Shown here in pieces: positions 5,029-60,569 of a stretch of DNA of 64,000 nt. The stretch comes from a virus. Every line of letters starts with the position of its first letter. Positions within the stretch are counted from its first letter, which is position 1. The notes below the pieces were generated by a model. It was not told the origin of the DNA. It searched no databases and saw only the letters and a program-made list of their open reading frames with translations. Both the position numbers and the translations under genes were made by a program. The stretch lies in IMG/VR virus record IMGVR_UViG_3300005546_000004, positions 1 through 64,000 of that record; one strand, given 5' to 3'.

Positions 5029-5095
5029 CTCGATCTCCCTGTCTAGGGTTAGGTGCCGAGGCGCCCTACCCAAGGCGCCCCGGCGGTTGCATTCG

Positions 5096-5160
5096 ACGCT
5101 CGGACTTGAACCGAGACATCCAGCTTTCCAAGCTGGTGGGCTGCCAAGTTGCCCCACATC
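5096..5160 (-). tRNA. tRNA-like element with intact D-arm, anticodon arm (loop TTGGAAA, anticodon GGA) and T-arm (CTCGG-TTCAAGT-CCGAG), but no obvious acceptor-stem pairing; degenerate tRNA or tRNA pseudogene
   Basis: Folded by eye from the reverse complement. U8, GG in the D-loop and GGTTCAAGTCC T-loop are present; the 7-bp acceptor stem could not be paired. Confidence 0.35.
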
Positions 5161-5248
5161 GGGTTACATTGATCCACCTCTACACGTTTAAGAACCTAGG
5201 TTAGCTTAAGAGCGCCGCGACGCTGCCGTTACGTCCACCGCGCCACGT

Positions 5249-6285: not shown

Positions 6286-6358
6286 GTGCGGGAACCGGAT
6301 TCGAACCGGCGACCTCCGGGTTATGAGCCCGGTACGCTACCAACTGCGCCACCCCGCA
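6286..6358 (-). tRNA. tRNA-Met (anticodon CAT)
   Basis: Full cloverleaf by eye: acceptor TGCGGGG/TCCCGCA, D-arm GGCGCAGTTGGTAGCGT, anticodon arm CCGGG-CTCATAA-CCCGG, T-arm GCCGG-TTCGAAT-CCGGT. CCA is not encoded. Confidence 0.85.
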
Positions 6359-7249: not shown

Positions 7250-9715
7250 GTGACAACTGTACCACAGCCTACCTGGACTCCGATCGAGCTGGGAAGAGAC
7301 GTCCGGGCGGAGGCGCTGCGGCTCGCCGGCGAGGACGTCCGCGTCTTCCCGGTGTGGGGAATCCGGCGAACCCGAGCGCCGGCGCTGGGCACCGGCGAAC
7401 CGTCCTGGGAGAACCGGTGTGGCTGCGGCAACCCGGCGTGCCCGAACCCGGCGAAGCACCCCGTCGGCGCGCTGGTACCGAACGGACACAACGGCGCCGT
7501 CACGGACGCCGGGATCGTTGAGGCGTGGTTCCGCGTACCGGACGACCCACCCGACTCGTGGGTGCCGTACAACCTGGGCGTCGCGACGGGTCGGGGACTG
7601 CTGGTCGTCGACGCCGACGTCAAGCAGCCCCGCCCGGACCTTCCCACCGGACTCGAGGTCCTAGACGACTGGGAGACGTGGACGCAGGGTACCGGGCTGC
7701 CGCGCCGGACGCGGACGATCCAGACCGGCTCCGGCGGCGCGCACCTGTGGCTGGCGTACGACCCGGCGCTGCGGATACCGGCCCGCAACCGCGTGCTGCC
7801 GGGTATTGACCTGAAGGCCGACGGCGGCTACGTCCTGGCGGCCCCGTCGGTGCACGCCTCCGGCGCCCGCTACCTGGTCCGGGATCCCTCGGCGCCGATC
7901 CTGGACGTTCCGGACGACCTGCGGTCGTGGCTGCTCACCGTGCGGGGCGGCCGCTACGTCACCCGGCGCGCGCGGGATTCGTCCGGTCCGGTACCGGACG
8001 ACTACGACTTTCGGCGGATCGTCGCCGGCACGGGCTGCCCGGCGGGGCACCGGGACTACTTCGTCAACGACCTGTGCTTTCGGCTCAGGCGTAGCGGACT
8101 CGCGGTCGAGGACGCCGCCTCGGCGCTCCGGCGCGAGTGGCTGCGCATGGAGCAGCCGTCGGGCGACGAGTTCCCGTGGGACGCGTGCCTGTACAAGCTG
8201 CGCCGGGTCTGGGACGAGGTTTCCCCGGAGGAGATCGTAGACATTCCGGCGTGGCGGCCGCCGAATCTAGGTACCGTAAACGCTACCGTAAACGTAAACT
8301 CGCAGGTAGACGCCGCACCGGACGGTCTACTGCTCAGCGCCGTCGAGGCGCTGGACCGGCCGGACCTGACGTTTACGCCGTCGGATACCGGCAACGGCAT
8401 CCGGTTCGCCCAGCGGATGCGGGACGTCGTGCGCTGGTGCGTCGGCGAGCAGCGCTGGTACCTGTGGGACGGCTCGCGCTGGGCGCCGGACGAACTCAAC
8501 CGGACGCTGCTGCTGACGGAGGAGGTCATCAAGGACCTGTACGTCGAGGCCGCCCGGCTGAACGGCGAGCGCGACCGGACGAACCTGGAGAACTGGGCCC
8601 GGACGTCGCAGGCCGCCGGCCGGCGGCGGGCGATGCTGGAGCTGGCCTCGGCGCAGCCCGGACTGGCCGTCAGGCCGGACCAGCTGGACGCGGACGCGTG
8701 GCTGCTGGTCGTCGCCAACGGAACCGTCGACCTGCGCGCCGGGACGCTGCGCCCGTCGCAGCCGGAGGACCTCTGTACTCGAAGAGCGGACGTCGCGTTC
8801 GACCCCGGGGCGTCGGCGCCGCTGTGGGAGCGGCACGTCGAGTTCGTCACCGGCGGCGACCGGCTGCTGGCGGACTGGCTGCGCCGGGCCGTCGGCTACA
8901 CGCTCACCGGGCTGACGGACGAGCAGAAGCTGTTCTTCCTGTGGGGCAACGGCGCCAACGGAAAAAGCACGTTCGTCGACGTCGTCGCCGGGGTCCTCGG
9001 GACGTACGCGACGCAGGCGGACGAGAACCTGCTGACCGGTTCGGGGGGCCACCCGACGCAGCTGGCGGACCTGCGCGGCGTCCGGCTGGTCGTCGCGGAC
9101 GAGACCGACCGGGATAAGAAGCTCGCCGAGCAGCGGATCAAGATGCTGACCGGCCGCCGGATCAAGGCCCGCTTCATGCGTCAGGACTTCTTCGAGTACT
9201 CCCCGCGGTTCAAGCTGTGGGTCTCGGGCAACCACAAGCCGGAGATCCGCGGCAACGACCTGGGGATCTGGCGCCGGATGCAGCTCGTCCCGTTCGCCTC
9301 GACGCTGGACGCCGACCGGAAGATCCTCGGCTACGAGGACGTACTGCGCCGCGAGGCGGCCGGGATCCTGAACTGGGCGTTGGTCGGACTGGCGGACTGG
9401 GTCAAGCTCGACGGACTTGGCGAACCGGAGGCCGTCCGGTCGGCGACCCGCGAGTACCGGGAGGAGGAGGACTCGATCGGGCTGTGGCTCGCCGAGGTCG
9501 CCGAGCTGGGCGCCGCGGACTCGGAGGTCGACAACGCGCGGCTGTACGACTCGTACCGGTGGTGGTGCCACGCCAACGGCGTCCAGGACGTCCGGTCGAA
9601 CGTCGTCCTCGGCCGCGAGCTGGCGGCGCGCGGACTGGCGCGCGGGGTGTTACGGATCGGCGGCCGGCAGGTCAGAATCTGGCGCGGAATTCGACTGAAC
9701 ACGGCGGATCTGTAA
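7250..9715 (+). CDS. Bifunctional primase-polymerase (prim-pol N-terminal domain) / SF3 helicase (D5 / P4-type primase C-terminal NTPase)
   Basis: N-terminal RVFPVWGI... prim-pol-like region. Walker A LFFLWGNGANGKSTFVDVVAGVLG with DETD Walker B, typical of P4/D5 family primase-helicases. 821 aa. Confidence 0.85.
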   Translation: MTTVPQPTWTPIELGRDVRAEALRLAGEDVRVFPVWGIRRTRAPALGTGEPSWENRCGCGNPACPNPAKHPVGALVPNGHNGAVTDAGIVEAWFRVPDDPPDSWVPYNLGVATGRGLLVVDADVKQPRPDLPTGLEVLDDWETWTQGTGLPRRTRTIQTGSGGAHLWLAYDPALRIPARNRVLPGIDLKADGGYVLAAPSVHASGARYLVRDPSAPILDVPDDLRSWLLTVRGGRYVTRRARDSSGPVPDDYDFRRIVAGTGCPAGHRDYFVNDLCFRLRRSGLAVEDAASALRREWLRMEQPSGDEFPWDACLYKLRRVWDEVSPEEIVDIPAWRPPNLGTVNATVNVNSQVDAAPDGLLLSAVEALDRPDLTFTPSDTGNGIRFAQRMRDVVRWCVGEQRWYLWDGSRWAPDELNRTLLLTEEVIKDLYVEAARLNGERDRTNLENWARTSQAAGRRRAMLELASAQPGLAVRPDQLDADAWLLVVANGTVDLRAGTLRPSQPEDLCTRRADVAFDPGASAPLWERHVEFVTGGDRLLADWLRRAVGYTLTGLTDEQKLFFLWGNGANGKSTFVDVVAGVLGTYATQADENLLTGSGGHPTQLADLRGVRLVVADETDRDKKLAEQRIKMLTGRRIKARFMRQDFFEYSPRFKLWVSGNHKPEIRGNDLGIWRRMQLVPFASTLDADRKILGYEDVLRREAAGILNWALVGLADWVKLDGLGEPEAVRSATREYREEEDSIGLWLAEVAELGAADSEVDNARLYDSYRWWCHANGVQDVRSNVVLGRELAARGLARGVLRIGGRQVRIWRGIRLNTADL

Positions 9716-17215: not shown

Positions 17216-18100
17216 GTGTTCATTACCGTTTTGATCGTTGTACTGTTCGTCCTCGCGATCGGTTGCCTGTTCAAGGGCACCGTCCGGCTCGACGGCGATC
17301 CGTTTCGGATTCGCTGGATCGGCGTCGTGCTACTCGGCGTCGGCTTTCTCGTCCTCGGACTCGCCACGATCGTCGTCGTCCCGACGAAGAACGAGGGCGT
17401 CGTCATCGCGTTTGGCAAGCCCGTCGACACGATCCACAACGGCATCCACGTGGTCGCGCCCTGGGAGGACGTCGCCGACTACGACGCGACGGTTCAGACG
17501 CTGGATATGTCCGGCAACGACGAGACGCCGACGCTGCACGTCCGGATGCTCGCCGGCCGGGCGACCGCCGACGTCAACGTCACGCTCAACTGGCGCCTCG
17601 AGGGCGACATTCAGCAGCTGCACAAGGACTGGCGCGAGTTCTCGCACATCCAGAAGTTCGTCGTCATTCCCCGGCTGCAGGACGCGCTCAACAAGGAGTT
17701 CACGGACTACGATCCGCTCGTCGCGCTGAAGAACGCCGACGCGAAGCCGGTGACGATGTCCGAGATGGAGATCCGCGTCGCCGAGCGGCTGCAGCGTAAC
17801 CTGCCCGCCGGCGTGTTCATCGACCACCTGCAGATTCCCCTGGTTATCTACCCGCCGGTCATCCAGGACGCGTTGAACGCGTACCAGAAGGAGCTCGCCA
17901 ACACGCAGGTGGCATTGCAGCAGAAGTCCACCGCGCAGGCGCAGAAGGACGCGCTGGACATCCTGGCGCAGGCTAGGATGTCGCCCGAGGCGTTCCAGCA
18001 GCAGTGCCTGATCATGACCGAGCGGCTGGCGCAGCAGGGTAAGCAGATTTCGCTGACGTGGTCGTGCGTCGCCGGCGGCGCCGGAGTCGTCGCCAAGTAG
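17216..18100 (+). CDS. SPFH / band-7 (stomatin-prohibitin-HflK/C-like) membrane protein
   Basis: N-terminal TM helix followed by VVPTKNEGVVIAFGKPVDTIHNGIHVVAPWEDV...TVQTLDMSGNDETPTLHV..., matching the SPFH core pattern. GTG start after AGAAGGAGAGGGAC. Confidence 0.7.
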   Translation: MFITVLIVVLFVLAIGCLFKGTVRLDGDPFRIRWIGVVLLGVGFLVLGLATIVVVPTKNEGVVIAFGKPVDTIHNGIHVVAPWEDVADYDATVQTLDMSGNDETPTLHVRMLAGRATADVNVTLNWRLEGDIQQLHKDWREFSHIQKFVVIPRLQDALNKEFTDYDPLVALKNADAKPVTMSEMEIRVAERLQRNLPAGVFIDHLQIPLVIYPPVIQDALNAYQKELANTQVALQQKSTAQAQKDALDILAQARMSPEAFQQQCLIMTERLAQQGKQISLTWSCVAGGAGVVAK

Positions 18101-18201
18101 AACCTCCCTCTTCCATGAGGGTTGGATGGGGTGGTAAGAGAGGCCGGAGCCGCCGCGGAGGTTCCGGCCTCGCCCTAGGCGCGAGCGAGAGTGAGGAAGA
18201 G

Positions 18202-18666
18202 ATGAGCGACGTCATTCAACTGCGCTCCGAGTACATGCGGGCCGCGTTCGGCGACCTGGACTACGTCGCCGAGGAGCTGCGCCACCGGCTGGACGCGGAC
18301 TTTCGCGAACCGATCGTCGTCGACACGCTCGTCGGCACGGGACTGTCCGGCGCGCTGGTCGTACCCGGCGTCGCACGGATCCTGAAGCTGAACTGGGTCG
18401 TCGTCCGGAAGCCGAACGAGGCCAGCCACGCGTCGTACCCGTTCGAGGGAACGCTCGGCCGACGCTGGCTGTTCGTCGACGACCGGGTCGAGACCGGCGC
18501 GACGCTGCGCCGGGTCCGCGAGGCGATCGACGACGGCGCGCGCCGGTACGGACCGATCGACGACACGGTCTTCAGCGTCTACGGCGGACGCCGGCAGCTG
18601 TTCGCGACGACGTTCGTCGGCTACTACGTCTACATGTACGCGCGCCTGAGCCTGCACGAGGATTGA
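18202..18666 (+). CDS. Type I phosphoribosyltransferase (PRTase) domain protein
   Basis: PRPP-binding motif WLFVDDRVETGATL (consensus hhhhDDhhTTGgT). 155 aa. ATG after AGTGAGGAAGAG. Confidence 0.65.
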   Translation: MSDVIQLRSEYMRAAFGDLDYVAEELRHRLDADFREPIVVDTLVGTGLSGALVVPGVARILKLNWVVVRKPNEASHASYPFEGTLGRRWLFVDDRVETGATLRRVREAIDDGARRYGPIDDTVFSVYGGRRQLFATTFVGYYVYMYARLSLHED

Positions 18667-18685: not shown

Positions 18686-20200
18686 GTGCAGACCAAGACG
18701 CGGGCGCAGCTGTTCGCCGAGCTCGCGGATCCGCCCGAGCGCCGGTGGCGCAACGACCCGATCCGGTGGGCGATCGAGCGCGCCCGGATCGAGATCTGGT
18801 CGAAGCAGCGCGAGATCCTCGAGGCCGTCCGGGACCACCCGCGGGTAGCGATCCCGTCGTGCCACTCCGCGGGTAAGTCGTTCACCATGGGCTGCCTAAC
18901 GTGCTGGTGGCTGGACGTTCACCCGATCGGCGAGGCCCGGGTAATCAGCACGGCGCCGACCTCGAAGCAGGTCGACGCCGTGCTGTGGAATGAGATCAAC
19001 CAGCACCACGCGCGCATCGGCCTGCGCGGCCGCACGAACAAGAACGAGTGGTACTTCGGCCGGTTCATGGCCGGGCTGGGGCGTAAGCCGCCGGACCACG
19101 TCGAGGCCGCCTTCCAGGGACTGCACGCGCTCTACCTGCTGGTGATCTTCGACGAGGCGTACGGCATCCCGAAGCACCTGTGGGACGAAGGCTCGTCGCT
19201 GGCGTCGAACCGCAACGCGCGGATGGTCGCCGTCGGCAACCCGGACGGACCCGGCGAGTTCGCCGAGATCTGCAGGCCGGGCTCCGGTTGGCACGTCATT
19301 CCGATCTCGTACCGGGACACGCCGAACTACACCGGTGAGCAGGTATCGGACCGGCTGCGGGACATGCTGATCTCGCTGGACTGGGTCGAGGACCGCCGCC
19401 GGAAGTGGGGTGAACAGTCGGCGCTGTTCCAGTCCAAGTGTGAGGGCAGGTTTCCGGCCGAGGGTTCGCCGTGGGACGTCATTCCGCACGCGTGGATCGC
19501 CCGGTGCCGTTCGCTGGAGCTGGTCGCCGACGGACCGATCGAGGCCGGCGTCGACGTCGCGGCCGGCAACGACCGCACGGTGGTCACGGTGCGGCGCGGT
19601 CCGGCGGTGCTGCACGTCGAGTGGTTCGTCGACGCGGACCCGATGAAGACCGTCGGCCAGGTCGCCAACGCCCTGCGCGACTGGAAGGTAACCAGCACGA
19701 AGGTCGACTCGATCGGCGTCGGCTGGGGCATCTACGGCCGGCTCAGGGAACTGTCCCGCCGGGTCAGTCCAGACGGCGGGGTGCACGACTCAGACGTGGT
19801 GCCGATCAACGTGTCGCTGGCGCCGACGCCCGGCAACGAGGAGCGGTTCTTGAACCGGCGCGCCGAGATGTGGTGGCTCGGACGGGAGCTGTCGCGCCTG
19901 CAGCGCTGGGACCTGTCGCGGCTGCCGGAGGACCTGCAGGACGACGTCATTCACGAGCTGGCGGCCCCGCGCTACGAGATCCTCGACTCGAAGGGCCGCG
20001 TGAAGATCGAGCCGAAGGACGACATCATTAAGCGACTCGGGGTCTCGCCCGACCTGGCGGAGTCGCTGCTGCTCGCGTTCGTTCCGGCCAACTGGACGGC
20101 CGAGACCAACACGCAGGCGCTGGTCGACGCGCCGAGCCTGCTGGAGTCGCTGTCCGCGTTCGACCAGGTCCACGCCGGCTCGTGGTGGCTGCGCCGGTAG
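18686..20200 (+). CDS. terL: Terminase large subunit
   Basis: ATPase Walker A-like CHSAGKSF; C-terminal nuclease domain (DSIGVGWGIYGRL). 504 aa. A GGGACC-GGAA-GGTCCC hairpin follows the stop. Confidence 0.85.
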   Translation: MQTKTRAQLFAELADPPERRWRNDPIRWAIERARIEIWSKQREILEAVRDHPRVAIPSCHSAGKSFTMGCLTCWWLDVHPIGEARVISTAPTSKQVDAVLWNEINQHHARIGLRGRTNKNEWYFGRFMAGLGRKPPDHVEAAFQGLHALYLLVIFDEAYGIPKHLWDEGSSLASNRNARMVAVGNPDGPGEFAEICRPGSGWHVIPISYRDTPNYTGEQVSDRLRDMLISLDWVEDRRRKWGEQSALFQSKCEGRFPAEGSPWDVIPHAWIARCRSLELVADGPIEAGVDVAAGNDRTVVTVRRGPAVLHVEWFVDADPMKTVGQVANALRDWKVTSTKVDSIGVGWGIYGRLRELSRRVSPDGGVHDSDVVPINVSLAPTPGNEERFLNRRAEMWWLGRELSRLQRWDLSRLPEDLQDDVIHELAAPRYEILDSKGRVKIEPKDDIIKRLGVSPDLAESLLLAFVPANWTAETNTQALVDAPSLLESLSAFDQVHAGSWWLRR

Positions 20201-20253
20201 TCAAACATTTGTCTAGGGGGACCGGAAGGTCCCGCGAAGAGAGGGAGATCGAG

Positions 20254-20463
20254 ATGAGTTGGATCGTGGAAACCGCAGAGCTGAAACCCGGAATGGTCAT
20301 TCGAATGGACGAGGGAGACTTCGAGGTTATCGCGCTAGATCGCGAGAACGCCTACGACAAGTACCTTCCCTGGACAGGGCGAAACGTAGCTACCCGAGCG
20401 ACCGTTACCTTCGCCGAGGCCCGCTACTACGGCGACAACGAGGTTCTTGGTTACGCAGTTTGA
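20254..20463 (+). CDS. hypothetical protein
   Basis: ATG after GAGGGAGATCGAG; followed immediately by hammerhead ribozyme 1. Confidence 0.5.
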   Translation: MSWIVETAELKPGMVIRMDEGDFEVIALDRENAYDKYLPWTGRNVATRATVTFAEARYYGDNEVLGYAV

Positions 20464-20467
20464 AAAA

Positions 20468-20517
20468 GATCGAAACGCCGGGAGGCGTCCACGGTTCAAG
20501 ACCGTGCTGATGAGATC
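20468..20517 (+). ncRNA. Hammerhead ribozyme, type II topology (copy 1)
   Basis: GAUC-GAA-A-[helix III ACGCC-GGGA-GGCGU]-C17-[helix I CACGG-UUCAAGA-CCGUG]-CUGAUGA-GAUC. Conserved core CUGAUGA and GAAA. GUC cleavage triplet. Helix II formed by the terminal GAUC/GAUC. Confidence 0.75.
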
Positions 20518-20536
20518 AAAAGAGACGGAGATCGAG

Positions 20537-20815
20537 ATGAGCTACGACAGAGACGACGTCGAACTGACCGAACTACTCGAGTCGCAGATCGGCGAGGTGC
20601 CCGACACGGGCTCGCCCGAGGTTAGGTACCCGAACGTCACGGTAAAACTGGTCGGCGAGGACGGCAACGCGTTCAACCTGATTGGAGTGGTAGCCCGAAG
20701 GATACGCGTCGCGATCGGCCGCGAGGCTGAGAAGGCGTTTACGACCGAGGCCTTCGACTGCGACTCGTACGACGAGCTGCTCGCCTTCATTCAGCGAACC
20801 GTGATCGTCGAGTAG
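20537..20815 (+). CDS. hypothetical protein
   Basis: ATG after GACGGAGATCGAG; lies between the two hammerhead motifs. Confidence 0.5.
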   Translation: MSYDRDDVELTELLESQIGEVPDTGSPEVRYPNVTVKLVGEDGNAFNLIGVVARRIRVAIGREAEKAFTTEAFDCDSYDELLAFIQRTVIVE

Positions 20816-20822
20816 CAAGACA

Positions 20823-20886
20823 GATCGAAACTCCGATCGCCGGGAGGCAGAGCGGGGTCCACGGCTTGCGGCCGTGCTGACGAGAT
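20823..20886 (+). ncRNA. Hammerhead ribozyme, type II topology (copy 2)
   Basis: GAUC-GAA-A-[extended helix III ACUCC...GCC-GGGA-GGC...GGGGU]-C17-[helix I CACGGC-UUGCG-GCCGUG]-CUGACGA-GAUC. N7 varies (U to C). Helix I is lengthened by a compensatory base pair relative to copy 1. Confidence 0.7.
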
Positions 20887-20908
20887 CGTGAGAGGAGAGT
20901 GAGAGGAG

Positions 20909-21166
20909 ATGCGCGACGGTACGTACTTCCTGATCGAGGCGCTGAGGCGTAACGAGACCGGCACCGTAGAGTGGGCGCTCGTCGCCGGCGACACGCCCGG
21001 CGTTCCGCTCCGACTGACGGACCGGGACGAGGCGATCGTCCGGTGGCGCCGGGCGCGCGGCGACTACCGCGACGTCCGGATCGTTCGGATCGAGATCCGC
21101 GCCGGCGAGCTGGTCGACGAGCGAGTGGTCGACCTGGACGAGCCGCAGTTTAAACTGATCGACTAG
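20909..21166 (+). CDS. hypothetical protein
   Basis: ATG after GAGAGGAGAGTGAGAGGAG. Confidence 0.5.
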   Translation: MRDGTYFLIEALRRNETGTVEWALVAGDTPGVPLRLTDRDEAIVRWRRARGDYRDVRIVRIEIRAGELVDERVVDLDEPQFKLID

Positions 21167-21167
21167 T

Positions 21168-21196
21168 TGCACATAACTCACATGTGAGTTAGAGTA
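21168..21196 (+). promoter_or_regulatory. Sigma-70-like promoter TTGCAC-N17-TAGAGT with a 16-bp perfect palindrome (AACTCACATGTGAGTT) in the spacer (operator candidate)
   Basis: Read directly from sequence: -35 at 21168-21173, -10 at 21191-21196, palindrome at 21176-21191. Confidence 0.5.
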
Positions 21197-21363
21197 GTTC
21201 CTATAAGTGAATGCGCATCGTCAAAATCTACCGACCAGAGGGTCCGCACTGTGCATTCACTTTCTTCGCGCGTCGAAGTTTCTCCGCGCAGATCTCCTCA
21301 GTTTCACCGGTCCGCCACGGGGGCGTCGACCGGCGACGCATCCCAAGCCTGAGGAGGCAAATC

Positions 21364-22089
21364 ATGGAACACCGGACGCAGTCCGCGATATTCCGCACCG
21401 AGTGGGCGAAGAACGCGGCTCGTACCATGCTCGACGTAATCAAGGCGATCACCAAGCGCTCAAAGCTCATCACGGGCCTCGCGCTCGGCGCCTCGACCCC
21501 GCACCAGATGCTCTACCTGATCGCGGCGTGCATCCCTCACATGCACCTAGACAGCTTGCAGGGCAAGCTGGACGCGCTCGGAATGGTACTGATCGCCGTG
21601 GTGGTACCCATCGTGGCGGACCTGACGATCTACACGTGCATCGACACGCTCGGCGCGCAGGCTGCGTCCCGATCGTCCAAGCTCAGGGCACTCCTGTTCA
21701 TGATCATTCCGCTCGGGGCGAGCGGCTACGTCAACTTCCTCGCCCCCGCGCCGATGCTCCTCAAGGGGCTGGCGGCCTTCCTGGTAGCTATGATCATGAT
21801 CGCGCAGGGGCTTCGATTCATCGAGGCCGACTGGCAGCAGCTCGAGGACTTCGAGACTAGGAACGTCGTGATCGAAGACGTACTGGACGAACCCGCGCGG
21901 CCGAAGCGCCCGCCGGTCACGGAGCGAGAGAAGCGGGCCCGCCGGAGGGACTTTTACGACGCGATGACCAACACCGAGAGGTACAAGTGGCGGACCGCGT
22001 GGCGAATCAAGGAGACGGCGCGCCTGGCGCGCGAGGTCGAGGACTCCGTACCGGTCAGCCCGGCACCCGCCGGACTGAGCGTCGAGTAG
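21364..22089 (+). CDS. Polytopic membrane protein with charged C-terminal tail
   Basis: ATG after GAGGAGG. At least 4 hydrophobic helices (LITGLALGA, MVLIAVVVPIVADLTIY, ALLFMIIPLGASGYV, LAAFLVAMIMIAQGL). Confidence 0.55.
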   Translation: MEHRTQSAIFRTEWAKNAARTMLDVIKAITKRSKLITGLALGASTPHQMLYLIAACIPHMHLDSLQGKLDALGMVLIAVVVPIVADLTIYTCIDTLGAQAASRSSKLRALLFMIIPLGASGYVNFLAPAPMLLKGLAAFLVAMIMIAQGLRFIEADWQQLEDFETRNVVIEDVLDEPARPKRPPVTEREKRARRRDFYDAMTNTERYKWRTAWRIKETARLAREVEDSVPVSPAPAGLSVE

Positions 22090-22197
22090 AAGATCGTAGG
22101 GCCCGGGCTTCGGCTCGGGCCCTTCGGCGTTTACGGGCGTGAACGCCTGTGATATAGTAGGTTCTAGGTGGAACAACCGCAGATAGGGAGAACGAAG

Positions 22198-22365
22198 ATG
22201 AGGGACCTCGAGGACCGCTGGGGACGCTGCGACCGTCACGGCGGACTGATCGACGAGTGTGAGTTGCTGTACCGGCCGGCCGCGGACGAGCTGATCTGCG
22301 ACGACTGCGCGGCGGACGAGATCGCCGAGCTCAACGAGCTCGCGCGGCGGGCGGTGAGGTCGTGA
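22198..22365 (+). CDS. small zinc-ribbon protein
   Basis: ATG after GGGAGAACGAAG. C..H..C...C..C pattern in 55 aa. Confidence 0.45.
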   Translation: MRDLEDRWGRCDRHGGLIDECELLYRPAADELICDDCAADEIAELNELARRAVRS

Positions 22366-22820
22366 ACCGGGTGATCGGCCTCCACGGAACCGCGCTGGTG
22401 ACGTGCCCGCAAATGCACTCGCACGGTCTAGTGCCGCTGGACGTCGCGTACGACGCCGAAGAGCCGCTGACGATCGCCCTGGTCGTCACCGACGCGGCGA
22501 ACAAGACCTACGCGTGGCAGCTGTCGCGCAACCTACTGCTCGAGGCAGTCGTCGACGGCGATAAGAACGACTGCGCGGTCGTCGGCCTCGGCGACGTGAC
22601 GTTGAAGGTCCGAACGTCGGATCCGTGCGCGATCACACTGCGGCTGCGGGTCGCCGATCCGAGCCGTCCGCAGCTGCGTAGCTTCGTCTACCTGATCGTC
22701 GATCGCGACCAGCTGCGCAGGTTTGTCCTCGACACGTACGAGGTCGTACCGGCGCACCTCGAGGTCGACCACCTGCCGCTGGACGACGTCGACCGGCTAG
22801 TCGAGGAGGAGTGGAAGTGA
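22362..22820 (+). CDS. SsgA-like protein (SALP; SsgB-like sporulation-specific cell-division protein family)
   Basis: Pattern VAYDAEEPLTIALVV...YAWQLSRNLLLEAV...GDVTLKV...AITLRL..FVYLIVDRDQLRRFVLDTYEVVPAHLE parallels SsgB (YDTADPYAVHATF..WVFARDLLAEGL..GDVRVWP..VALSSP..LESFLKRTDAAVPPGTE). 152 aa. Confidence 0.6.
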   Translation: MNRVIGLHGTALVTCPQMHSHGLVPLDVAYDAEEPLTIALVVTDAANKTYAWQLSRNLLLEAVVDGDKNDCAVVGLGDVTLKVRTSDPCAITLRLRVADPSRPQLRSFVYLIVDRDQLRRFVLDTYEVVPAHLEVDHLPLDDVDRLVEEEWK

Positions 22821-23517: not shown

Positions 23518-25143
23518 GTGACCGATCGCATCGGACGCAGCCGCCCGCGCGGCGAGCTGGCGCTGTCCGGCGAAATTCTGCCCGCGGACGTCGTCACCGC
23601 GTCGGCGCAGCTACTGTTCGGCACGGCCCGCGAGTCGTACGCCACCCAGTACCGCACGTGGCAGGACGAACTGTGGAACTACGCCAAGTCCGTCGGCGAG
23701 TACGGCAGCGTCATGGACTGGTTCGCCGCCGGCTGCTCGCGCATGCATCTGGTCGCGGCGCTCCAGCGGCCCGGCCTGCGGGAACCCGAGCCGATCACCG
23801 ACCCGGCGGATCCGGCCGCGCGGCTCATGCACCGGCTGACGATCAACGCCCGCGGCGGCGAAACCCAGTACCTGTACAAGTGGGGCCGGCACCTGGGCAC
23901 GCCCGGCGTCGGCTACTTCGTCGCGTACACGCGCGACGAGGACAACGTCGAGGTGTTCGACGTCAAGTCCGCCAAGCAAATCCGGCGCTCGACGCAGCCG
24001 TTCACCGACCCACGGACCGGCCGCGACGTCCAGGGACGCGACGGCCGCGTCCTGCTCGGCTACGACGTCATGGTCGGCCAGAACGAGTGGCTTAAGCTGC
24101 CCTACTCGCAGCTCGTCGGCCGGATCTACCGCCCCGACGACGAACTGGACTACGAACCGACGTCGTGGTCCCGCGCCGCGCTGACGACGCTGCGCGAGAT
24201 CGACCTGCTGAACCGGCACATCGTCGCGACGCTGCTGTCCCGGCTCGTCTTCAACGGCATCCTGTTCATACCCGACGAGGTCACGTTTCCCGTCAACCCG
24301 CAGTTCAAGGACGCCCCGGATCCGTTCATCGCGGAGCTGCTCGCCGTCGCCTCGCGCGGCATCCGCGACCCGGGTTCGCCCGCCAGCGCGATCCCGTTCC
24401 CGCTGCGCGTCAAGTCCGAATTCATCGAAAAGTTCAAGCACCTGATCATCGCCACCGGCATCGACCCGAAGATCATCGAGGCGCGCGCGGCGGCGATCAC
24501 CAACCTGTCGAAGCAGCTGCCGGCGCCGCCCGAGGCCATGCAGGGCAAGGGCGATCTGAACCACTGGAACGCGTGGAAGGACTCCGAGGACAACGTTAAG
24601 ATGTACTTCGGTCCGACCCTGGAGATCCTCGCCGGCGGGCACACGGACGTCTACCTGCACCCGATGCTGCGCGCCGCCGGCCAGCCGATCGACCGGCCGG
24701 AGGGCCGGGTCATCTGCTGGTACGACGACTCGGACCTGGTCGTCAAGCCCGACAACTCGGAGAACGCCAAGTCCGCCCGCGAGGTCGTCGCCATCCGAAC
24801 GGACGCGTACCTGGAGCAGCTCGGCCTCGACAAGGCCGACAGGCCGTCCAAGTCCGAGCGCCGCGAACTTATCCTGACCGACCTGGCGCGACAGGGACTG
24901 CCGACGCCGGACTCGTACTACCTGCTGTACCCCGAGGACAAGCCGGATCCCGTCGACGTAGCGACCGACGCCGCCGCCCGGGCCGGCCAGCTAGATCCGG
25001 CGACCGGGCGTCCCGCGATTCCCGCTGGCCCCGGGCAGCAGCCGGGACGCCCGGGCGCCGACCAGTCCAACGTCCGCGAGCAGGCGCCGTCGACGGGCCG
25101 AGGCACGCCGTCGCGGCCGCCGCAGCCTCCCCGAGGAGGTTAG
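23518..25143 (+). CDS. Portal protein
   Basis: 541-aa protein placed between terminase and head-morphogenesis genes; acidic Pro/Gln-rich C-terminal tail typical of actinophage portals. Confidence 0.75.
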   Translation: MTDRIGRSRPRGELALSGEILPADVVTASAQLLFGTARESYATQYRTWQDELWNYAKSVGEYGSVMDWFAAGCSRMHLVAALQRPGLREPEPITDPADPAARLMHRLTINARGGETQYLYKWGRHLGTPGVGYFVAYTRDEDNVEVFDVKSAKQIRRSTQPFTDPRTGRDVQGRDGRVLLGYDVMVGQNEWLKLPYSQLVGRIYRPDDELDYEPTSWSRAALTTLREIDLLNRHIVATLLSRLVFNGILFIPDEVTFPVNPQFKDAPDPFIAELLAVASRGIRDPGSPASAIPFPLRVKSEFIEKFKHLIIATGIDPKIIEARAAAITNLSKQLPAPPEAMQGKGDLNHWNAWKDSEDNVKMYFGPTLEILAGGHTDVYLHPMLRAAGQPIDRPEGRVICWYDDSDLVVKPDNSENAKSAREVVAIRTDAYLEQLGLDKADRPSKSERRELILTDLARQGLPTPDSYYLLYPEDKPDPVDVATDAAARAGQLDPATGRPAIPAGPGQQPGRPGADQSNVREQAPSTGRGTPSRPPQPPRGG

Positions 25144-25145
25144 AC

Positions 25146-26705
25146 GTGGCCGCCCCGCGGATCGTCCGCGGCTGGGACGAACACGACATCCGGCGGCGCG
25201 AGGCCGTCTTCGATGGCCTGGTCACCAAGGCCGTCCGCATGTCGCTGCGTGCGCTGACGGCCGACCTGCGGCCGATCGTCGCCGCGTACAGGCCGCAGCT
25301 GACGCTCGGCGAATCCGGCACCGTTGCCGCGACGTGGCAGGCCTACGTCGCCGGCGAGCTGTACCCGTACCTGGTCCAGACGTTCGTCGACGCCGCCGGT
25401 GACGTCGCCGAGAACACCGAGGCCGCGACTGGCGCGACGCTGCCGGCCGTCGGCTACTCGTACGCCGCGGACTACCTAGCCTCGGCGACCAATCGACTGT
25501 GGAACCTCGGCGACCAGGTCTGGAACCAGGTCCGTGACCAGCTCGCCGTCGGCTACGACTCCGGCGAGTCGATGACCCAGCTCGCCGCGCGGATCCGGGA
25601 TGTCTCGAACCTGACGGAGGCCAAGGCGCTGGCCGTCGCCCGGACCGAGGTCGCGTCCGCCGCCAACCAGGGCACGCTGTACCAGATGCTGGTCGCCGGC
25701 TTCACCGACCAGGAGTGCGAAAAGGGCTGGCTGGCGACCGAGGACGAACGCACCCGACCGGCGCACGTCGCCGCGGACGGGCAGTGGGTCGGCATCCTGC
25801 AGCCGTTTAACGTTGGTGGCGAGGGCCTGCAGTGCCCCGGCGACCCGACCGGGCGGCCGGACAACATCATCAACTGCCGGTGCACGCTGCAGTTTCGCTT
25901 TCCCGACGACAACGACGAACCGCAAACCGCCGCCGGCCAGCCGCGCGACGCCTACGGTCGCTTCATCCGGGCGTCCGCGGCTCCCGCCGGCCTCGACCAG
26001 TTCCGCTGGGTCGAGGACGAGCACCCGCGCCTACCGGACGGCGAGTTCACCGACAAGTTCGACTGGCTGTCGTTCGCCGACGCCGACAAGATGCACGACG
26101 ACATGCAGCGCGGCAGGCCGTGGAGCGGCGCGCAGTTCGACGCGCTGACCGAGTACTCCCGCAGCGCGTACGCGCCGATCAACATGTACCTACGCGGACA
26201 GACGCACCCGGACGACGACGCATCGGCGCGAACGCTCGCGCACATCGACGACATTCGAGCCGCGATGCGGCCGATGACGCGCGACCTGAAGGTCCAACGC
26301 GGCCTATACGCCGACGCGTTCGAGGGCGTCAAGACCGCCGGCGACCTGGAGAAGATGATCGGCCGCACGTTCGAGGAGCGCGGCTTCCTGTCGACGACGA
26401 TCGATCCGAGGTTCCTGCGACACACGAAGACCGCGCGCACCGATCAGATCGTGACGCTGGAACTGGACGTGCCGGCCGGTACGCCCGCGGCGTACCTAGC
26501 CGCCGGCCAGTCGCACCAGCACCCCGGCCTCGCCGGCGAGCGCGAGCTGCTGCTCGACGCCGGAGCCCGGTTCGTCATCACCGGCGTCGAGGAGCGCACC
26601 GTCGACGGACGCGACCGGTTCATCGTCCTCGCGCGCGTCGTACCGCCACCCGCTAGAACCTGGCGGAAGCTTCACCTGCCGTGGACGAAGGGAGGCTCCG
26701 CGTGA
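25146..26705 (+). CDS. MuF-like head morphogenesis protein fused to a C-terminal R-S-E ADP-ribosyltransferase toxin domain
   Basis: MuF/SPP1-gp7 hallmarks TRPAH and INCRC. C-terminal ART motifs: YSRSAYAPINMYLRG (aromatic-x-IN-xx-LR), FLSTTID (STS), GERELLLDAG (ExE). Confidence 0.8.
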   Translation: MAAPRIVRGWDEHDIRRREAVFDGLVTKAVRMSLRALTADLRPIVAAYRPQLTLGESGTVAATWQAYVAGELYPYLVQTFVDAAGDVAENTEAATGATLPAVGYSYAADYLASATNRLWNLGDQVWNQVRDQLAVGYDSGESMTQLAARIRDVSNLTEAKALAVARTEVASAANQGTLYQMLVAGFTDQECEKGWLATEDERTRPAHVAADGQWVGILQPFNVGGEGLQCPGDPTGRPDNIINCRCTLQFRFPDDNDEPQTAAGQPRDAYGRFIRASAAPAGLDQFRWVEDEHPRLPDGEFTDKFDWLSFADADKMHDDMQRGRPWSGAQFDALTEYSRSAYAPINMYLRGQTHPDDDASARTLAHIDDIRAAMRPMTRDLKVQRGLYADAFEGVKTAGDLEKMIGRTFEERGFLSTTIDPRFLRHTKTARTDQIVTLELDVPAGTPAAYLAAGQSHQHPGLAGERELLLDAGARFVITGVEERTVDGRDRFIVLARVVPPPARTWRKLHLPWTKGGSA

Positions 26706-39475: not shown

Positions 39476-41721
39476 CCGAACCGATCGACATCGCGTTCGT
39501 CGAGGTCGTCGTCCGCGACCAGGACCTCGAGAGGCTGCCCAAGGACGTCGACAAGGCCGCCCGCAGGGCCGAGCGCAACTTCGAGCAGGAGTTCACCGAT
39601 AAGATCGACAAGCACTTCGGCTCGACGATGAAGAAGATGGAGAGGGACGTCGATCACTTCGTCGACGCGGGCAGGAAGGACTTCGAGCGGCTCGACAACG
39701 CGACGCATACGTCGTTTACGCACATCGAACGCGACTTCGACCGGACGACGCGCGGCATGCGCCGCCGCGTAGGCGAGCTCGTCGACGACTTCGAGCACCT
39801 CGGCGACAACGTCGACAACCGGTTTGGCGCGCGCCTGCGGCGCGGCCTAAGCCAGATCTCAACCAGCTTCGGCGCCGTGGTCCAGAACGTTGGACAGCTG
39901 CTCGGAACCCTCGGCGGCGGACTTGCTAAGAACCCATTCGCCGCGCTGATCGTCGCGCTGATACCGCCGATCATCGCGCTGTCCGGCGTCATCGCGCAGC
40001 TCATCGGCCTGGTCGGCCTGCTGCCGTCCGGCTTGGTCGTCCTCGCCGCGACGATCGCGCCGCTGGTCATCGCCTTCCACAACTTCGGCGACGCCGTCAG
40101 CGCGCTCGCCAGCGGCGATCTGGAAAAGATCAACGAGGCGCTGAAGAAGCTCGCGCCATCCGCGCGTGTCGTCGCCCGCGAGGTTGCCAACCTACTCGAA
40201 CCGCTGCGGGCGCTGCAGCGCGCCGTCCAGGAGGCCTTCTTCGCGCCGCTGATCGGCGGATTCGCGCAGCTGAACAATACCCTCGTTCCGGCGCTGTCGA
40301 TCGGGCTCAGCCGCGTCGCCGGCCAGCTCGGCGTCGTCCTGCGCCGGATCCTGGACTTCCTGGCCCTGCCTGAGCAGGTCGCGTTCTTCGACAAGCTGTT
40401 CGGCGCCGTCGAGCGGCTCGTCGCCCGGTTCGGGCCCAATCTGATCTCGTTCTTCGAGGGCTTCCTCAACGTCGCCGGCGCCGCGCTGCCGATCTTCGAG
40501 CGGCTCAGCAACGTCATGGTCGACGCGCTCGGCCGGTTCGGGCAGTTCATGACCGAGCAGGCCGCGAACGGCGGCCTCAACGACTTCATTGAGAACGCGG
40601 TCACCGCGGCGAAGGAGCTCGGCCACCTCCTCGGCGCACTAGTGCACCTGTTTCACACGCTGTTCGAGGGAACGCGCCAGTCGGGGCACGACCTCCTGAA
40701 CACGCTAACCGACATAATCGAGCGACTGGACGAGTTCCTACAGACGCCCGCCGGCCAGGACGCGCTCAAGGAACTCGTCATAGTGATCAAGGCCTTCGGC
40801 TTTATACTCGGCACAACGGTCGATCTGCTCATCTTCTCGCAGCAGATCTTCACCAACTTCCTGCGGGCGCTGGAAAAGATCGGACGCGGCGCCAAGGCGA
40901 CCGTCGGGTTCATCGGCGACGTCGTGCCGAAGGCGTTCGGTCAGATCATTGACTTCATCGACGGGATTCCCGCGCTACTCGGCACCACGCTGCGGAACGC
41001 GTTCGACTCGGCACTCGTGCAGTTCGGCATTGCTATCGGCCTCATTCTCTTCGAGGTTAAAAACCTACCCGACCTGATCGTCGGCTTCATCGCCTCGATC
41101 CCGCAGCGCATCACGAACGCCCTCGGCGGCGTCGGACCGTCCGTCGGCGGCATCTTCAGAGACATGGTCACCAACGCCCGGGACTTCGTCGTCAACGGCT
41201 TCAACGACCTGGTCGCGTTCATCGAGTCGGTGCCCGACCGGATCAAGGCCCTCGGACCGTTGCTACTAGACGCCGGACGTCACATCATCGAGGCGTTTAT
41301 GAACGGCCTACGCCGCGTCGGCAGCTTCATCGGCGACGTCGCGGGTGACATCTTCGGCGCCGTCAGGGGCTTCCTCAACAAGGCGATCGATAAGATAAAC
41401 GTCGGCATCGCGAAGATCGACGAGATCCTGCCGGGGGATCTGCCGCGCATTCCGCGACTCGCCGAGGGTGCCCTCGTCAAGCACCGACCCGGCGGCACGC
41501 TGGTCGTTGCCGGTGAGGGAAACGAGGACGAGGTCGTCGCTCCGCTGTCTAAGCTCGAACAGGGTGCGTCGATAACCTTCGGCCCGGGTTCGATCAACGT
41601 CAACTTCTCCGGCGCCGTACCGACGACGCAGGAGGCCGCCGACGTTGGCCGCGCCGTCGGTACCGGAATCATCAGCATTCTCACGCGACGTAACATCCGC
41701 GCGCAGGTTAGGTCGATCTAG
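39472..41721 (+). CDS. Tape measure protein
   Basis: 749 aa, alpha-helical, with hydrophobic central segment (LIVALIPPIIALSGVIAQLIGLVGLLPSGLVVLAATIAPLVIAF). Follows G/T. Confidence 0.85.
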   Translation: MTEPIDIAFVEVVVRDQDLERLPKDVDKAARRAERNFEQEFTDKIDKHFGSTMKKMERDVDHFVDAGRKDFERLDNATHTSFTHIERDFDRTTRGMRRRVGELVDDFEHLGDNVDNRFGARLRRGLSQISTSFGAVVQNVGQLLGTLGGGLAKNPFAALIVALIPPIIALSGVIAQLIGLVGLLPSGLVVLAATIAPLVIAFHNFGDAVSALASGDLEKINEALKKLAPSARVVAREVANLLEPLRALQRAVQEAFFAPLIGGFAQLNNTLVPALSIGLSRVAGQLGVVLRRILDFLALPEQVAFFDKLFGAVERLVARFGPNLISFFEGFLNVAGAALPIFERLSNVMVDALGRFGQFMTEQAANGGLNDFIENAVTAAKELGHLLGALVHLFHTLFEGTRQSGHDLLNTLTDIIERLDEFLQTPAGQDALKELVIVIKAFGFILGTTVDLLIFSQQIFTNFLRALEKIGRGAKATVGFIGDVVPKAFGQIIDFIDGIPALLGTTLRNAFDSALVQFGIAIGLILFEVKNLPDLIVGFIASIPQRITNALGGVGPSVGGIFRDMVTNARDFVVNGFNDLVAFIESVPDRIKALGPLLLDAGRHIIEAFMNGLRRVGSFIGDVAGDIFGAVRGFLNKAIDKINVGIAKIDEILPGDLPRIPRLAEGALVKHRPGGTLVVAGEGNEDEVVAPLSKLEQGASITFGPGSINVNFSGAVPTTQEAADVGRAVGTGIISILTRRNIRAQVRSI

Positions 41722-41723
41722 GC

Positions 41724-44204: not shown

Positions 44205-44210
44205 ATCGAG

Positions 44211-45323
44211 ATGCCCAGCAGCTTCGCGCGAACGTTCACGACGCAGGTTCCCGTTCCGGTACTCGACTTGGATGATTCGATCGGCCAGCGCCGGGCGACG
44301 TTCCGCTTTGACCTGGTCGACACGATCACCGGCTACCGGACGCCGATCTATCCGCGTCGCGACACGGTACCGACGCTGACGCACAACACGAGCCGCAGCA
44401 TCGTTAGGCAGCTGACTGGGCTCAACTTCGACGTCGACGACACGTCCCTGCTCGACGTCATCACGAGCCGCGTCGAACCGTTCATGGTCGTCGACGGCGA
44501 CGCGGCGTACCCGACCGGACGGCCGCTCGGCCGCTACATGTTCAATAGCAAGCTCGACTTCGAGTTCACGTCCGGTACGATCTCCACCACGATGCTGTAC
44601 GACGAGGGCTTCGATGTCGATCAGCAGCTCGACGTCAGCTTCGGCGCCCAGTCTACCGTCGGCATCGCGGCGCGCTGTCAGACGTTGCTTCTCAAGCTGC
44701 TCGACCCACTGCCGATTGAGGTTGAGATCGAGACGTCGCCGTACACGGCGACCACCGCCGGCTGGCGCGCCGGAACGTCGCGCGGCTTTGTCGTTCAGCA
44801 ACTCGCGCTGGACGGCGACTGGTTCTCACCGTGGTTCGGCAACGACGGTAAGATGCACTTCATCCGCGCGTTCGACCCGGCGACGGCACTCGTCACGTTC
44901 GACCTCGACGCCGGAAACCGCGTTATCCGCAACAAGGTCGTCCGAACCAGCGACCTAATCGAGGCCCCCAACCGGTTCATCGTCATCTCCAACTCGGCGA
45001 ACGCCGTCGCCGACGACATCACCGGATCGTACGACGTACCATCGTCGGCGCCGCACTCGATCCAAAACCGCGGCTTCGTCATACCTAAGATCGAGGACCG
45101 GCAGGTCGACGACGCCGCCCAGGCCAAGGCCGTCGCCCGCAACCTAGGACTCCGCCAGACGATCGTCGAGCAGCTGGAGATCTCGACGCCGCCGGATCCG
45201 CGCCACGACTCGTACGACGTCCTACGCTGGCGTGGCGACAACTGGCTCGAGATCGCGTGGTCGCTGCCGCTGGTCGAGGGTTCCGAGATGCAGCACACGG
45301 CGCGTAAGGCGTACGAACTGTGA
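44211..45323 (+). CDS. Minor tail protein
   Basis: 370 aa, tail-tip region. Confidence 0.6.
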   Translation: MPSSFARTFTTQVPVPVLDLDDSIGQRRATFRFDLVDTITGYRTPIYPRRDTVPTLTHNTSRSIVRQLTGLNFDVDDTSLLDVITSRVEPFMVVDGDAAYPTGRPLGRYMFNSKLDFEFTSGTISTTMLYDEGFDVDQQLDVSFGAQSTVGIAARCQTLLLKLLDPLPIEVEIETSPYTATTAGWRAGTSRGFVVQQLALDGDWFSPWFGNDGKMHFIRAFDPATALVTFDLDAGNRVIRNKVVRTSDLIEAPNRFIVISNSANAVADDITGSYDVPSSAPHSIQNRGFVIPKIEDRQVDDAAQAKAVARNLGLRQTIVEQLEISTPPDPRHDSYDVLRWRGDNWLEIAWSLPLVEGSEMQHTARKAYEL

Positions 45324-46012
45324 CTGCCGAGCCAATTTCACCCGTCGCCGTTGAGGTAGCCGCCGCTGCGCAGGAATCGATGCAGGCCGCCGAGCGGCTC
45401 GGCGCGCGCTGGGGCCTGCGCTACGGAACGATCACGCAGGTCAACAGCGGTACCAGCTGTCTCGGCGTCCTCGACGGCGATACGAACGCGACGCCGATTC
45501 CGCTGATCTCGCTGATCGGCACGCTAACTGCTACGCTCCGCGTCGCCGTCATTACGATACCACCGAGCGGCAACTACGTCATCGCCGCGGCCGGCGCGCT
45601 CGGCCGCGTCGCCAACGCGAACGCGCAGGTCTCCGCGAACGGCAGCACCACGTCCGCGGCATTCGCGAACTATCCGAGCCCGTACACGGTCACGCTGACG
45701 AAGCTGCAGACCGCGACGAGTATTCTAGTTCGGTGGGCGCAGACGTTCTTTACCGACAATGCGGCGACCGGACCCGAGTTCGGCGTCCAAGTCACCGTCG
45801 GCAGCACGAGCACCGACTACGTGACGCACAATCTGCCCGGCACGCTGCCGGTCAGCACGCGCGTCTCGACGTTCGGCGAGCGTAAGATCTCGGGTATCGC
45901 CGCGGGTGCGCTGACGATCACCGGACGCTGGCGTCGATTCGCCGGCGCCGGAACGATCTCGGTCATCAGCGGCGCCGACTACGCGAGCCTGACTGTCGAG
46001 GAGGTACTGTAG
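45320..46012 (+). CDS. Minor tail protein / tail fibre-like (Ala/Thr/Gly-rich)
   Basis: 230 aa with ATGA overlap. Confidence 0.5.
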   Translation: MTAEPISPVAVEVAAAAQESMQAAERLGARWGLRYGTITQVNSGTSCLGVLDGDTNATPIPLISLIGTLTATLRVAVITIPPSGNYVIAAAGALGRVANANAQVSANGSTTSAAFANYPSPYTVTLTKLQTATSILVRWAQTFFTDNAATGPEFGVQVTVGSTSTDYVTHNLPGTLPVSTRVSTFGERKISGIAAGALTITGRWRRFAGAGTISVISGADYASLTVEEVL

Positions 46013-47312: not shown

Positions 47313-47313
47313 G

Positions 47314-48513: not shown

Positions 48514-48523
48514 GAGGCCGTCG

Positions 48524-49605: not shown

Positions 49606-49648
49606 TACGTGGTGTGGTGTAAGCAACGTGACAAAAGCAGGTGAATGA

Positions 49649-52847: not shown

Positions 52848-52864
52848 CTCGATCTCTCACTCTC

Positions 52865-53062: not shown

Positions 53063-53176
53063 CGTCGATCTCCCTCTCCGCGTCTTACGTGATAAATCTA
53101 CAACACGGAGGCGGGGAAGGTAAAACGGTTCGCCCAAGATTTTTAGGCGAACCGCTTTACGGTGTTACTTAAATCT

Positions 53177-53389: not shown

Positions 53390-53390
53390 C

Positions 53391-56362: not shown

Positions 56363-56366
56363 CAGG

Positions 56367-60560: not shown

Positions 60561-60569
60561 GTGCGGCTC

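Follow-up and report, generated by a model that had tools for sequence, protein, structure and literature searches.

Background

Arrays of type II hammerhead ribozymes flanking single genes were described in prophages in 2011 (PMC3088659), and for these arrays Perreault et al. proposed that self-cleavage divides a long phage transcript into single-gene mRNAs (PMC3088659). Type II hammerheads flanking prophage genes cleave in vitro and in E. coli (PMC3088659), and others of the type, located near phage-like genes of Desulfovibrio vulgaris, do so in vivo (PMC8782182). According to the published consensus, loop I pairs with the tail 3' of stem II in a pseudoknot of at least 4 bp, which a majority of members have, but not all (PMC3088659). 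Here we analyzed a stretch of 64,000 nucleotides (the window) from the uncultured tailed phage of IMG/VR record IMGVR_UViG_3300005546_000004, in which two hammerheads, called copy 1 and copy 2, lie on either side of a 92-aa gene downstream of the gene encoding the large terminase subunit (terL). By their sequence the two copies are almost certainly genuine type II hammerheads, and very probably they are active ribozymes.

The window copies have the same core and the same circular permutation as the type II hammerheads of Perreault et al. and of the Rfam family RF02276 (Hammerhead_II), and in both cases the elements occupy intergenic spacers in the operons of phages or prophages, where multiple copies surround individual genes whose identity varies. 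However, their peripheral parts differ. In the RF02276 and published consensus, stem II has 2-3 bp, and loop I is longer (GUGG...) and forms a pseudoknot with the 3' tail (AGCCA). In the window copies, by contrast, stem II has 4 bp, and stem I has 6 bp and is closed by a UNNNG pentaloop; a conserved A, here called A(-1), directly precedes stem II on its 5' side, and the 3'-tail pseudoknot is absent. The window copies are of little weight as a discovery. The publication of 2011 already covered the ribozyme class, its permutation, its occurrence in phages and its arrays around genes, and the window copies are further examples, belonging to a sub-type that Rfam detects poorly.

Two complete type II hammerheads

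Copy 1 occupies positions 20468-20517 of the + strand and reads, as RNA, GAUC-GAA-ACGCC(GGGA)GGCGU-C-CACGGU(UCAAG)ACCGUG-CUGAUGA-GAUC. Its stem II consists of 4 bp (GAUC/GAUC, 20468-71 with 20514-17) and encloses G12A13A14 (20472-74), stem III (20475-88, 5 bp with a GGGA loop at 20480-83), C17 (20489), stem I (20490-20506, 6 bp with the loop UCAAG at 20496-20500) and the segment C3-A9, CUGAUGA (20507-13). Copy 2, at 20823-20887 of the same strand, reads GAUC-GAA-ACUCCG[AUC GCC(GGGA)GGC AGAG]CGGGGU-C-CACGGC(UUGCG)GCCGUG-CUGACGA-GAUC. Here stem II, again 4 bp GAUC/GAUC, pairs 20823-26 with 20884-87, and between its strands are found GAA (20827-29), stem III (20830-58), which has 6 bp, an internal loop AUC/AGAG and then GCC-GGGA-GGC (6+3 bp), C17 (20859), stem I (20860-76, 6 bp, loop UUGCG at 20866-70) and C3-A9, CUGACGA (20877-83). 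Copy 2 differs from copy 1 in its longer stem III, in its stem I, CACGGC(UUGCG)GCCGUG, and in having C as N7.

In both copies the elements follow the order II(3' strand)-GAA-III-H17-I-CUGANGA-II(5' strand), which is the type II permutation, with stem II open and stems I and III capped by loops. The hammerhead core (C3 U4 G5 A6 N7 G8 A9, G12 A13 A14, A15.1-U16.1 and H17) is canonical throughout in both, the pairs abutting it are G10.1-C11.1, C1.1-G2.1 and A15.1-U16.1, and the cleavage triplet is GUC. From the position of H17 and from hammerhead chemistry, cleavage is predicted on the + strand between C20489 (C17) and C20490 (N1.1) in copy 1 and between C20859 and C20860 in copy 2.

A previous reading of this DNA, made from the letters alone and called here the sequence-only reading, had proposed two complete type II hammerheads with canonical core and GUC triplet, a proposal now borne out by the sequence itself, by the descriptor and the covariance model R1 presented below, and by related phages. 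The differences it saw in N7 (U versus C) and in helix III, extended in copy 2, are also confirmed in the sequence. Its limits for copy 1 and its cleavage position after C20489 stand, but copy 2 ends at 20887 and not at 20886, and the predicted site in this copy follows C20859, the C17 position, and not C20858. Furthermore, helix I had been thought to grow from 5 to 6 bp from one copy to the other; instead stem I has 6 bp and a 5-nt loop in both, and the exchange of its sixth pair, U-A in copy 1 and C-G in copy 2, is a covariation.

We searched both strands of the window with a descriptor requiring CUGANGA, GAAA, U16.1, H17, at least 4 bp in stem II, at least 4 bp in stem I and at least 3 bp in stem III. 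Copies 1 and 2 were the only matches, and in 300 dinucleotide-preserving shuffles, both strands included, the descriptor matched only once, so that about 0.003 matches are expected by chance versus 2 observed. Folded in isolation, the 56 nt of copy 1 (20465-20520) adopt precisely the three-stem hammerhead as their minimum-free-energy structure. Copy 1 is supported, besides its sequence and this fold, by the descriptor, by R1 and by RF02276 as its top Rfam family, and copy 2 by its sequence, the descriptor, R1, RF02276 and the recurrence of its extended stem III in relatives.

Covariance models and a type II sub-type

Further type II hammerheads were collected by scanning IMG/VR with the pattern GAAA N0-12 GCCGGGAGGC N15-45 CUGANGA and then applying the descriptor. 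This strategy returned 70 unique hammerheads of type II, in many cases with 4-8 of them on the same contig. Model R1 was built from an alignment (A1) of 28 hammerheads with a stem II of 4-5 bp and a short stem-loop I, all from other viral contigs and none from the window. With filters off, R1 scores copy 1 at 71.4 bits (E=4e-17) and copy 2 at 55.0 bits (E=1e-12). The next-best match in the 64 kb reaches 16.4 bits (25226-25265); it was considered as a third, degenerate copy and rejected, as it has no stem III, retains only half of the core and falls within coding sequence.

From the IMG/VR matches we define here a sub-type having a 4-bp stem II, a 17-nt stem-loop I (6 bp plus UNNNG) and an A immediately 5' of stem II. 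Over 33 unique members these hallmarks are highly constant, A(-1) being found in 31/31, U as the first nucleotide of loop I in 32/33 and G as the fifth in 29/33, and both window copies satisfy every one of them. Four base pairs are the commonest state of stem II (36/70 descriptor matches), and the family consensus of this stem is GGNC/GNCC. In other hammerheads a loop-loop or pseudoknot contact holds stems I and II parallel; judging from their conservation, the unpaired A(-1), U and G may replace this contact in the sub-type.

A 5-nt complementarity between the 5' tail and loop I is present in both window copies, in the same register and 3-4 nt ahead of stem II (UUGAA 20460-64 with UUCAA 20495-99; GCAAG 20815-19 with CUUGC 20865-69). 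As a family feature, however, a 5'-tail pseudoknot was rejected, because the 33 members show no excess over permuted tails (3.73 vs 3.57, with 75 of 500 permutations as high) and because it is missing from the counterpart at 8535 in the related contig L001, despite an identical UCAAG loop. The complementarity is probably coincidental, with a possible contribution from the stop codon.

In searches with each copy on its own, RF02276 was the top Rfam family for both (21.4 bits for copy 1 and 18.7 bits for copy 2), and its alignment of the window copies spans model positions 1-66. As a control we applied RF02276 to the other hammerhead-bearing sequences. It detects the pseudoknot-type hammerheads of L084, of L102 and of Streptomyces phage Paedore; the type seen in L084 and L102 has a stem II of 2-3 bp and a loop I GUGG pairing with the 3' tail AGCCA. 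The same model finds 0/7 hammerheads in L086, 0/3 in L106, 1/6 in L141 and 0/8 in Streptomyces phage Yara, and it also misses the copy of L001, although the hammerheads missed in L086, L106, L141 and L001 all have perfect cores. Since the Hammerhead_II model misses the sub-type, routine annotation is, on these sequences, under-counting phage ribozymes, which a supplementary covariance model would remedy.

Conservation in related phages

A megablast search of the region against 50,697 phage records gave no match, and the best TerL identity to isolated phages is 42% overall and 37% to Streptomyces phages. IMG/VR contains relatives with TerL 52-71% identical, the closest being L001, L002 and L003 (68-71%). 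These three share with the window both the slot between terL and portal and the hammerhead sub-type: in this interval hammerheads are located at 8535-8601 and 9025-9092 in L001, at 8704-8768 and 9447-9515 in L002, and at 8670-8733, 9417-9473 and 10081-10147 in L003. The extended stem III of copy 2 recurs in the counterparts L001 9025-9092, L002 9447-9515 and L003 10081-10147, which also share its internal loop and GCC-GGGA-GGC, and the UCAAG loop of copy 1 is found again in its L001 counterpart. The relatives differ from the window in the gene that is bracketed, in their stem II (GGUC/GACC or GGCC, not GAUC) and, in some cases, in the core itself.

Concerning the core, L002 9447-9515, L003 8670-8733 and L003 10081-10147 carry U4->C (CCGANGA) in an otherwise perfect structure. 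This change may be a naturally tolerated or attenuated core variant; in a viroid, a U4C hammerhead is reported to stay biologically active in vivo (PMC3088659). An extra nucleotide, usually U, is inserted between A9 and G10.1 (CUGANGA-U-GGCC) in L001 8535-8601, L002 8704-8768 and L003 9417-9473. The same variant occurs in L094, L104, L119, L124 and L145 and is frequent enough among the IMG/VR matches to look like a stable sub-variant.

We aligned the hammerheads of this clade (alignment A2, 9 sequences). All cells are paired (100%), 8 of the 15 pairs are changed on both sides, and the covariation score is 0.59 versus 0.22 for shuffles and at most 0.11 for slid partners; these values should be read considering that a structure-aware model both picked the rows and aligned them, a procedure that favours pairing. 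No sequence deviates from GAAA or C17, and N7 is variable; within CUGANGA the only other change is U4->C, found in three relatives.

From about 20150 to 22300, the hammerheads are the sole DNA conserved between the window and L001-L003, bar one 60-nt stretch. This is the opposite of a core decaying amid conserved flanks, the pattern that the sequence-only reading had set against its own proposal. Each relative has a different gene between its hammerheads, and the bracketed genes (92, 130, 211 and 201 aa) are unrelated and have no common family. The possibility that the ribozymes travel with the 92-aa gene (p92) was rejected, as 67 viral loci encoding p92 relatives gave only 2 weak model matches. 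Since the bracketed genes are unrelated and the p92 homologues are not flanked by ribozymes, the ribozymes belong to the position and not to the cargo. Being the sole conserved DNA around a swapped gene, they offer a clean natural system for studying the role of intercistronic self-cleavage for a cargo gene inside a structural operon.

The 60-nt stretch (20552-20611) lies near the 5' end of p92 and is 78% identical to L002 9347-9406, the 3' end of an unrelated hammerhead-bracketed gene. It may be the recombination scar of a cargo exchange.

Genomic setting and host

The region is a series of + strand genes in a GC-rich (66%) tailed-phage genome. The variable interval is anchored upstream by terL (18686-20200, phrog_2, E=8.5e-35) and downstream by the portal gene (23518-25143, phrog_776, E=2.3e-76), both on the + strand. 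The first two of the small + strand open reading frames (ORFs) after terL are p69 (69 aa, 20254-20463, stop codon at 20461-63), taken from the ORF list and preceded by a good Shine-Dalgarno sequence, GGGAG, and p92 (20537-20815), which matches phrog_1933, of unknown function, with E=2e-17 and has a GC content at third codon positions (GC3) of 0.83. They are followed by p85 (85 aa, 20909-21166), also from the ORF list, with GAGGAG as Shine-Dalgarno sequence upstream and a GC3 of 0.89. Copies 1 and 2 occupy the intergenic spacers flanking p92, sense to the genes; their placement between small ORFs downstream of terL had been claimed before and is supported by the ORF list and the PHROG matches. 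For p69 the GC3 is only 0.67, versus 0.83-0.93 for its neighbours, and no family match was found. It is possible that this ORF is not a real gene; copy 1 would then lie within a 336-nt spacer between terL and p92.

The distances to the neighbouring genes are similar for the two copies: the upstream stop codon is 4 nt away from copy 1 and 7 nt from copy 2, and the downstream start codon 19 and 21 nt, respectively. This arrangement is common to the sub-type, in which 30/33 members have a stop triplet at most 15 nt upstream (35% in the background) and 27/33 a Shine-Dalgarno-like motif at most 30 nt downstream (30% in the background). Two other features concern the same spacers. An identical 15-nt translation-start region, GGAGATCGAGATGAG, runs up to and opens the p69 and p92 ORFs (20244-20258 and 20527-20541), and the spacer between terL and p69 contains, at 20218-20233, a 6-bp hairpin with a GGAA tetraloop (GGGACC-GGAA-GGTCCC), which has no T-run and is not a hammerhead.

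Between terL and portal there is also a gene encoding an SsgA-like protein (22362-22820; Pfam PF04686, E=6e-10). This is a family of sporulation and cell-division proteins of actinomycetes, and its presence hints at the host and at host manipulation. The nearest genomic TerL, 44% identical, belongs to a prophage of Acrocarpospora catenulata. Taken together, the SsgA-like gene and this TerL make an actinomycete host likely, and on this sequence evidence the phage of the window probably infects an actinomycete.

Hammerheads in isolated Streptomyces phages

Self-cleaving RNAs of this kind had been regarded, in the sequence-only reading, as rare and not described for actinophages. This view does not hold, given the prophage arrays of 2011 (PMC3088659) and the matches that we found in isolated phages. 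Streptomyces phage Paedore (NC_054671, identical in sequence to the IMG/VR locus L102) has 11 RF02276 matches above threshold in 11 kb, and Yara (MH019215) has 8 R1 matches at E<1e-9, none of which is detected by Rfam. In Paedore the region 41650-52743 (L152) holds a dense array of 13 type II hammerheads, and the region 45853-63897 of Yara (L153) one of 8, in both phages with small hypothetical genes on either side of the elements. Near-full-length matches were also found in Loofah, phiELB20, Wentworth and phiRKBJ001. In the isolated Streptomyces phages all the matches are in spacers unannotated in GenBank.

The 8 hammerheads of Yara belong to the same 4-bp-stem-II sub-type as the window copies and are located between small hypothetical genes. 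In both Yara and Paedore the arrays are sense to the genes and the hosts are actinomycetes, as is likely for the phage of the window. However, these arrays lie among small non-structural genes of the right arm, whereas the window has two copies only, in the terL-portal interval, and the two phages are unrelated to that of the window at the DNA level, with a TerL identity of at most 37%. A search on hammerheads in actinobacteriophages and Streptomyces phages found no relevant paper in the literature collection covered. Judging from these genomes, what actinophages lack is annotation and description of these ribozymes, not the ribozymes themselves. The presence of the ribozymes in isolated Streptomyces phages makes this biology testable in cultivable phage-host pairs.

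Proposed role and alternative explanations

We consider it highly likely that copies 1 and 2 are functional self-cleaving type II hammerheads, transcribed within the + strand terL-to-portal message of an uncultured tailed phage probably infecting an actinomycete; the sequences show the motif and its topology, its significance over chance, membership of the family according to covariance models, conservation with covariation in relatives, and the order of stop codon, ribozyme, Shine-Dalgarno sequence and start codon, while cleavage, co-transcription and physiological benefit are what we infer. Each copy would fold co-transcriptionally into three stems around the canonical core, and internal transesterification after C17 would then cut the RNA at C20489|C20490 and C20859|C20860. 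The polycistronic RNA would in this way be divided into a terL-p69 piece, a 370-nt monocistronic p92 RNA (20490-20859) and a piece from p85 onwards. At the 3' end of each upstream product would be the stem III hairpin, carrying a 2',3'-cyclic phosphate; each downstream product would have a 5'-OH and the stem I hairpin at its start, some 20 nt before its Shine-Dalgarno sequence. The likely benefit would be that stability and translation of a small, often exchanged cargo gene are uncoupled from those of the structural genes, the ribozymes acting as an RNA-level insulator between cistrons.

The engineered insulator RiboJ works in a comparable way, as its hammerhead, placed just upstream of the ribosome-binding site, removes the upstream RNA context, leaves a 5' hairpin and standardises downstream expression; this is the working model that we propose for the window copies. 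RiboJ, however, is synthetic, derives from a type III satellite hammerhead and is positioned downstream of a promoter, whereas the window elements are natural, type II and intercistronic. The transcript splitting proposed by Perreault et al. for prophage arrays is the model best supported for this locus.

Several results weigh against this interpretation. Rfam 15 at gathering thresholds gave no hammerhead match in the whole window, nor did Rfam at E<=10 on 581 nt, and the RF02276 scores of the single copies are far under the gathering score of 37 bits (by 15-18 bits). The check by covariance models suggested in the sequence-only reading is in this respect negative, yet RF02276 also misses most of the clear sub-type members, so that the sub-threshold score reflects the seed alignment and not the window sequence, and the independent R1 is positive for both copies. 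In longer sequence contexts stems I and III are retained, but the 4-bp stem II is lost from the minimum-free-energy fold, and it is unsurprising that a weak stem II drops out of longer folds if the motif depends on tertiary contacts. As regards such contacts, a 3'-tail pseudoknot with loop I was not found in the sub-type, where complementarity is not in excess (mean 3.42 vs 3.42 permuted), and because the type II pseudoknot is absent the stabilising contact is deduced only from A(-1), U and G. According to Perreault et al., a pseudoknot is missing from about 60% of all hammerheads (PMC3088659); since this contact is not universal, its absence does not bar membership of type II. Co-transcription is deduced only from gene orientation and from a scan that detected neither a consensus promoter nor a + strand terminator from terL to 22130, and such a scan is weak evidence where the host is an actinomycete. 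Finally, no hammerhead was found in this region in L004 and L006-L010 (TerL 52-64% for L004 and L006-L009; L005 was excluded, having too little sequence downstream of terL), and absence from these more distant relatives indicates that the elements are dispensable.

Some of these results would also fit elements that derive from hammerheads but are non-catalytic or mainly structural, that is, intergenic hairpins stabilising mRNA ends or pausing ribosomes or RNases, with little or no self-cleavage. The sub-threshold Rfam score, the lack of a recognisable pseudoknot contact, the tolerance of U4->C and of an extra U after A9 in relatives, and the more distant relatives without hammerheads all go in this direction. 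We nevertheless regard this explanation as unlikely, because neither copy has lost any of the 13 conserved core positions and variation is confined to the stems and compensatory, which is the signature of selection on the ribozyme fold and not on a single hairpin; moreover the U4C variant, as mentioned, is active in a viroid (PMC3088659). A different role for the pair, which we judge quite unlikely, would be that of an excision-ligation unit, in which the two ends of the excised p92 RNA, where copy 1 has left its 3' half and copy 2 its 5' half, rebuild a hammerhead and the RNA is circularised by reverse ligation or by an RtcB-type ligase of the host, or else the flanks are spliced. The palindromic stem II is identical in both copies, a chimeric stem II is feasible in L001-L003 too (GGCC with GGUC, one G-U pair), and cleavage ends with 5'-OH and 2',3'-cyclic phosphate are substrates of RtcB. 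However, a common stem II is expected from within-genome paralogy and from the family consensus GGNC/GNCC, and p92 has an ordinary stop codon and its own Shine-Dalgarno sequence, so its expression needs no circularity. Perreault et al., who raised this possibility, sought circular or spliced products at a bacterial triple-hammerhead locus and found none (PMC3088659). In an even more specific form, which we consider very unlikely, the hammerhead pair would be a conserved "expression socket" of the late operon in this phage lineage, the two ribozymes staying in place as the enclosed gene is exchanged, and the 370-nt RNA rebuilding a chimeric hammerhead from its two end halves, which have stem II in common, and being circularised, by ribozyme reversal or by the host RtcB ligase, into a stable circular mRNA. 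If true, this would be a natural circular mRNA of a DNA phage, formed as viroid monomers are.

The length of stem II had led the sequence-only reading to suggest dimerisation, according to which the short palindromic GAUC stem would be inactive in the monomer and two copies or transcripts would pair, as in the dimeric hammerheads of Penelope-like elements. It is true that GAUC is self-complementary and only 4 bp long, but this is the commonest stem II length among the phage hammerheads that we collected (36/70), most of their stems II, including those of most relatives, are not palindromic (e.g. GGAC/GUCC, GGUC/GACC), type II hammerheads with a stem II of 1-2 bp are documented as active (PMC3088659), and the isolated 56-nt copy 1 folds as a three-stem monomer, so that we find dimerisation extremely improbable. 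Copy 1 might also be read as an intrinsic terminator of the minus strand, formed by the stem III hairpin in reverse and followed by a T-run, and indeed a terminator-like match exists on that strand at 20490-20473. But two such sites occur in the region versus 2.8 expected by chance, the neighbouring genes are all on the + strand, and the core nucleotides and copy 2 would be left unexplained; by chance expectation and gene orientation this reading is effectively refuted, and we assign it a negligible probability.

Other features of the window

Directly upstream of terL are encoded an SPFH/Band 7 protein (17216-18100) and a phosphoribosyltransferase-like protein (18058-18666). The window also contains two tRNA genes on the minus strand, at 5091-5163 and 6286-6358 (Rfam tRNA, 49 and 65 bits, respectively).

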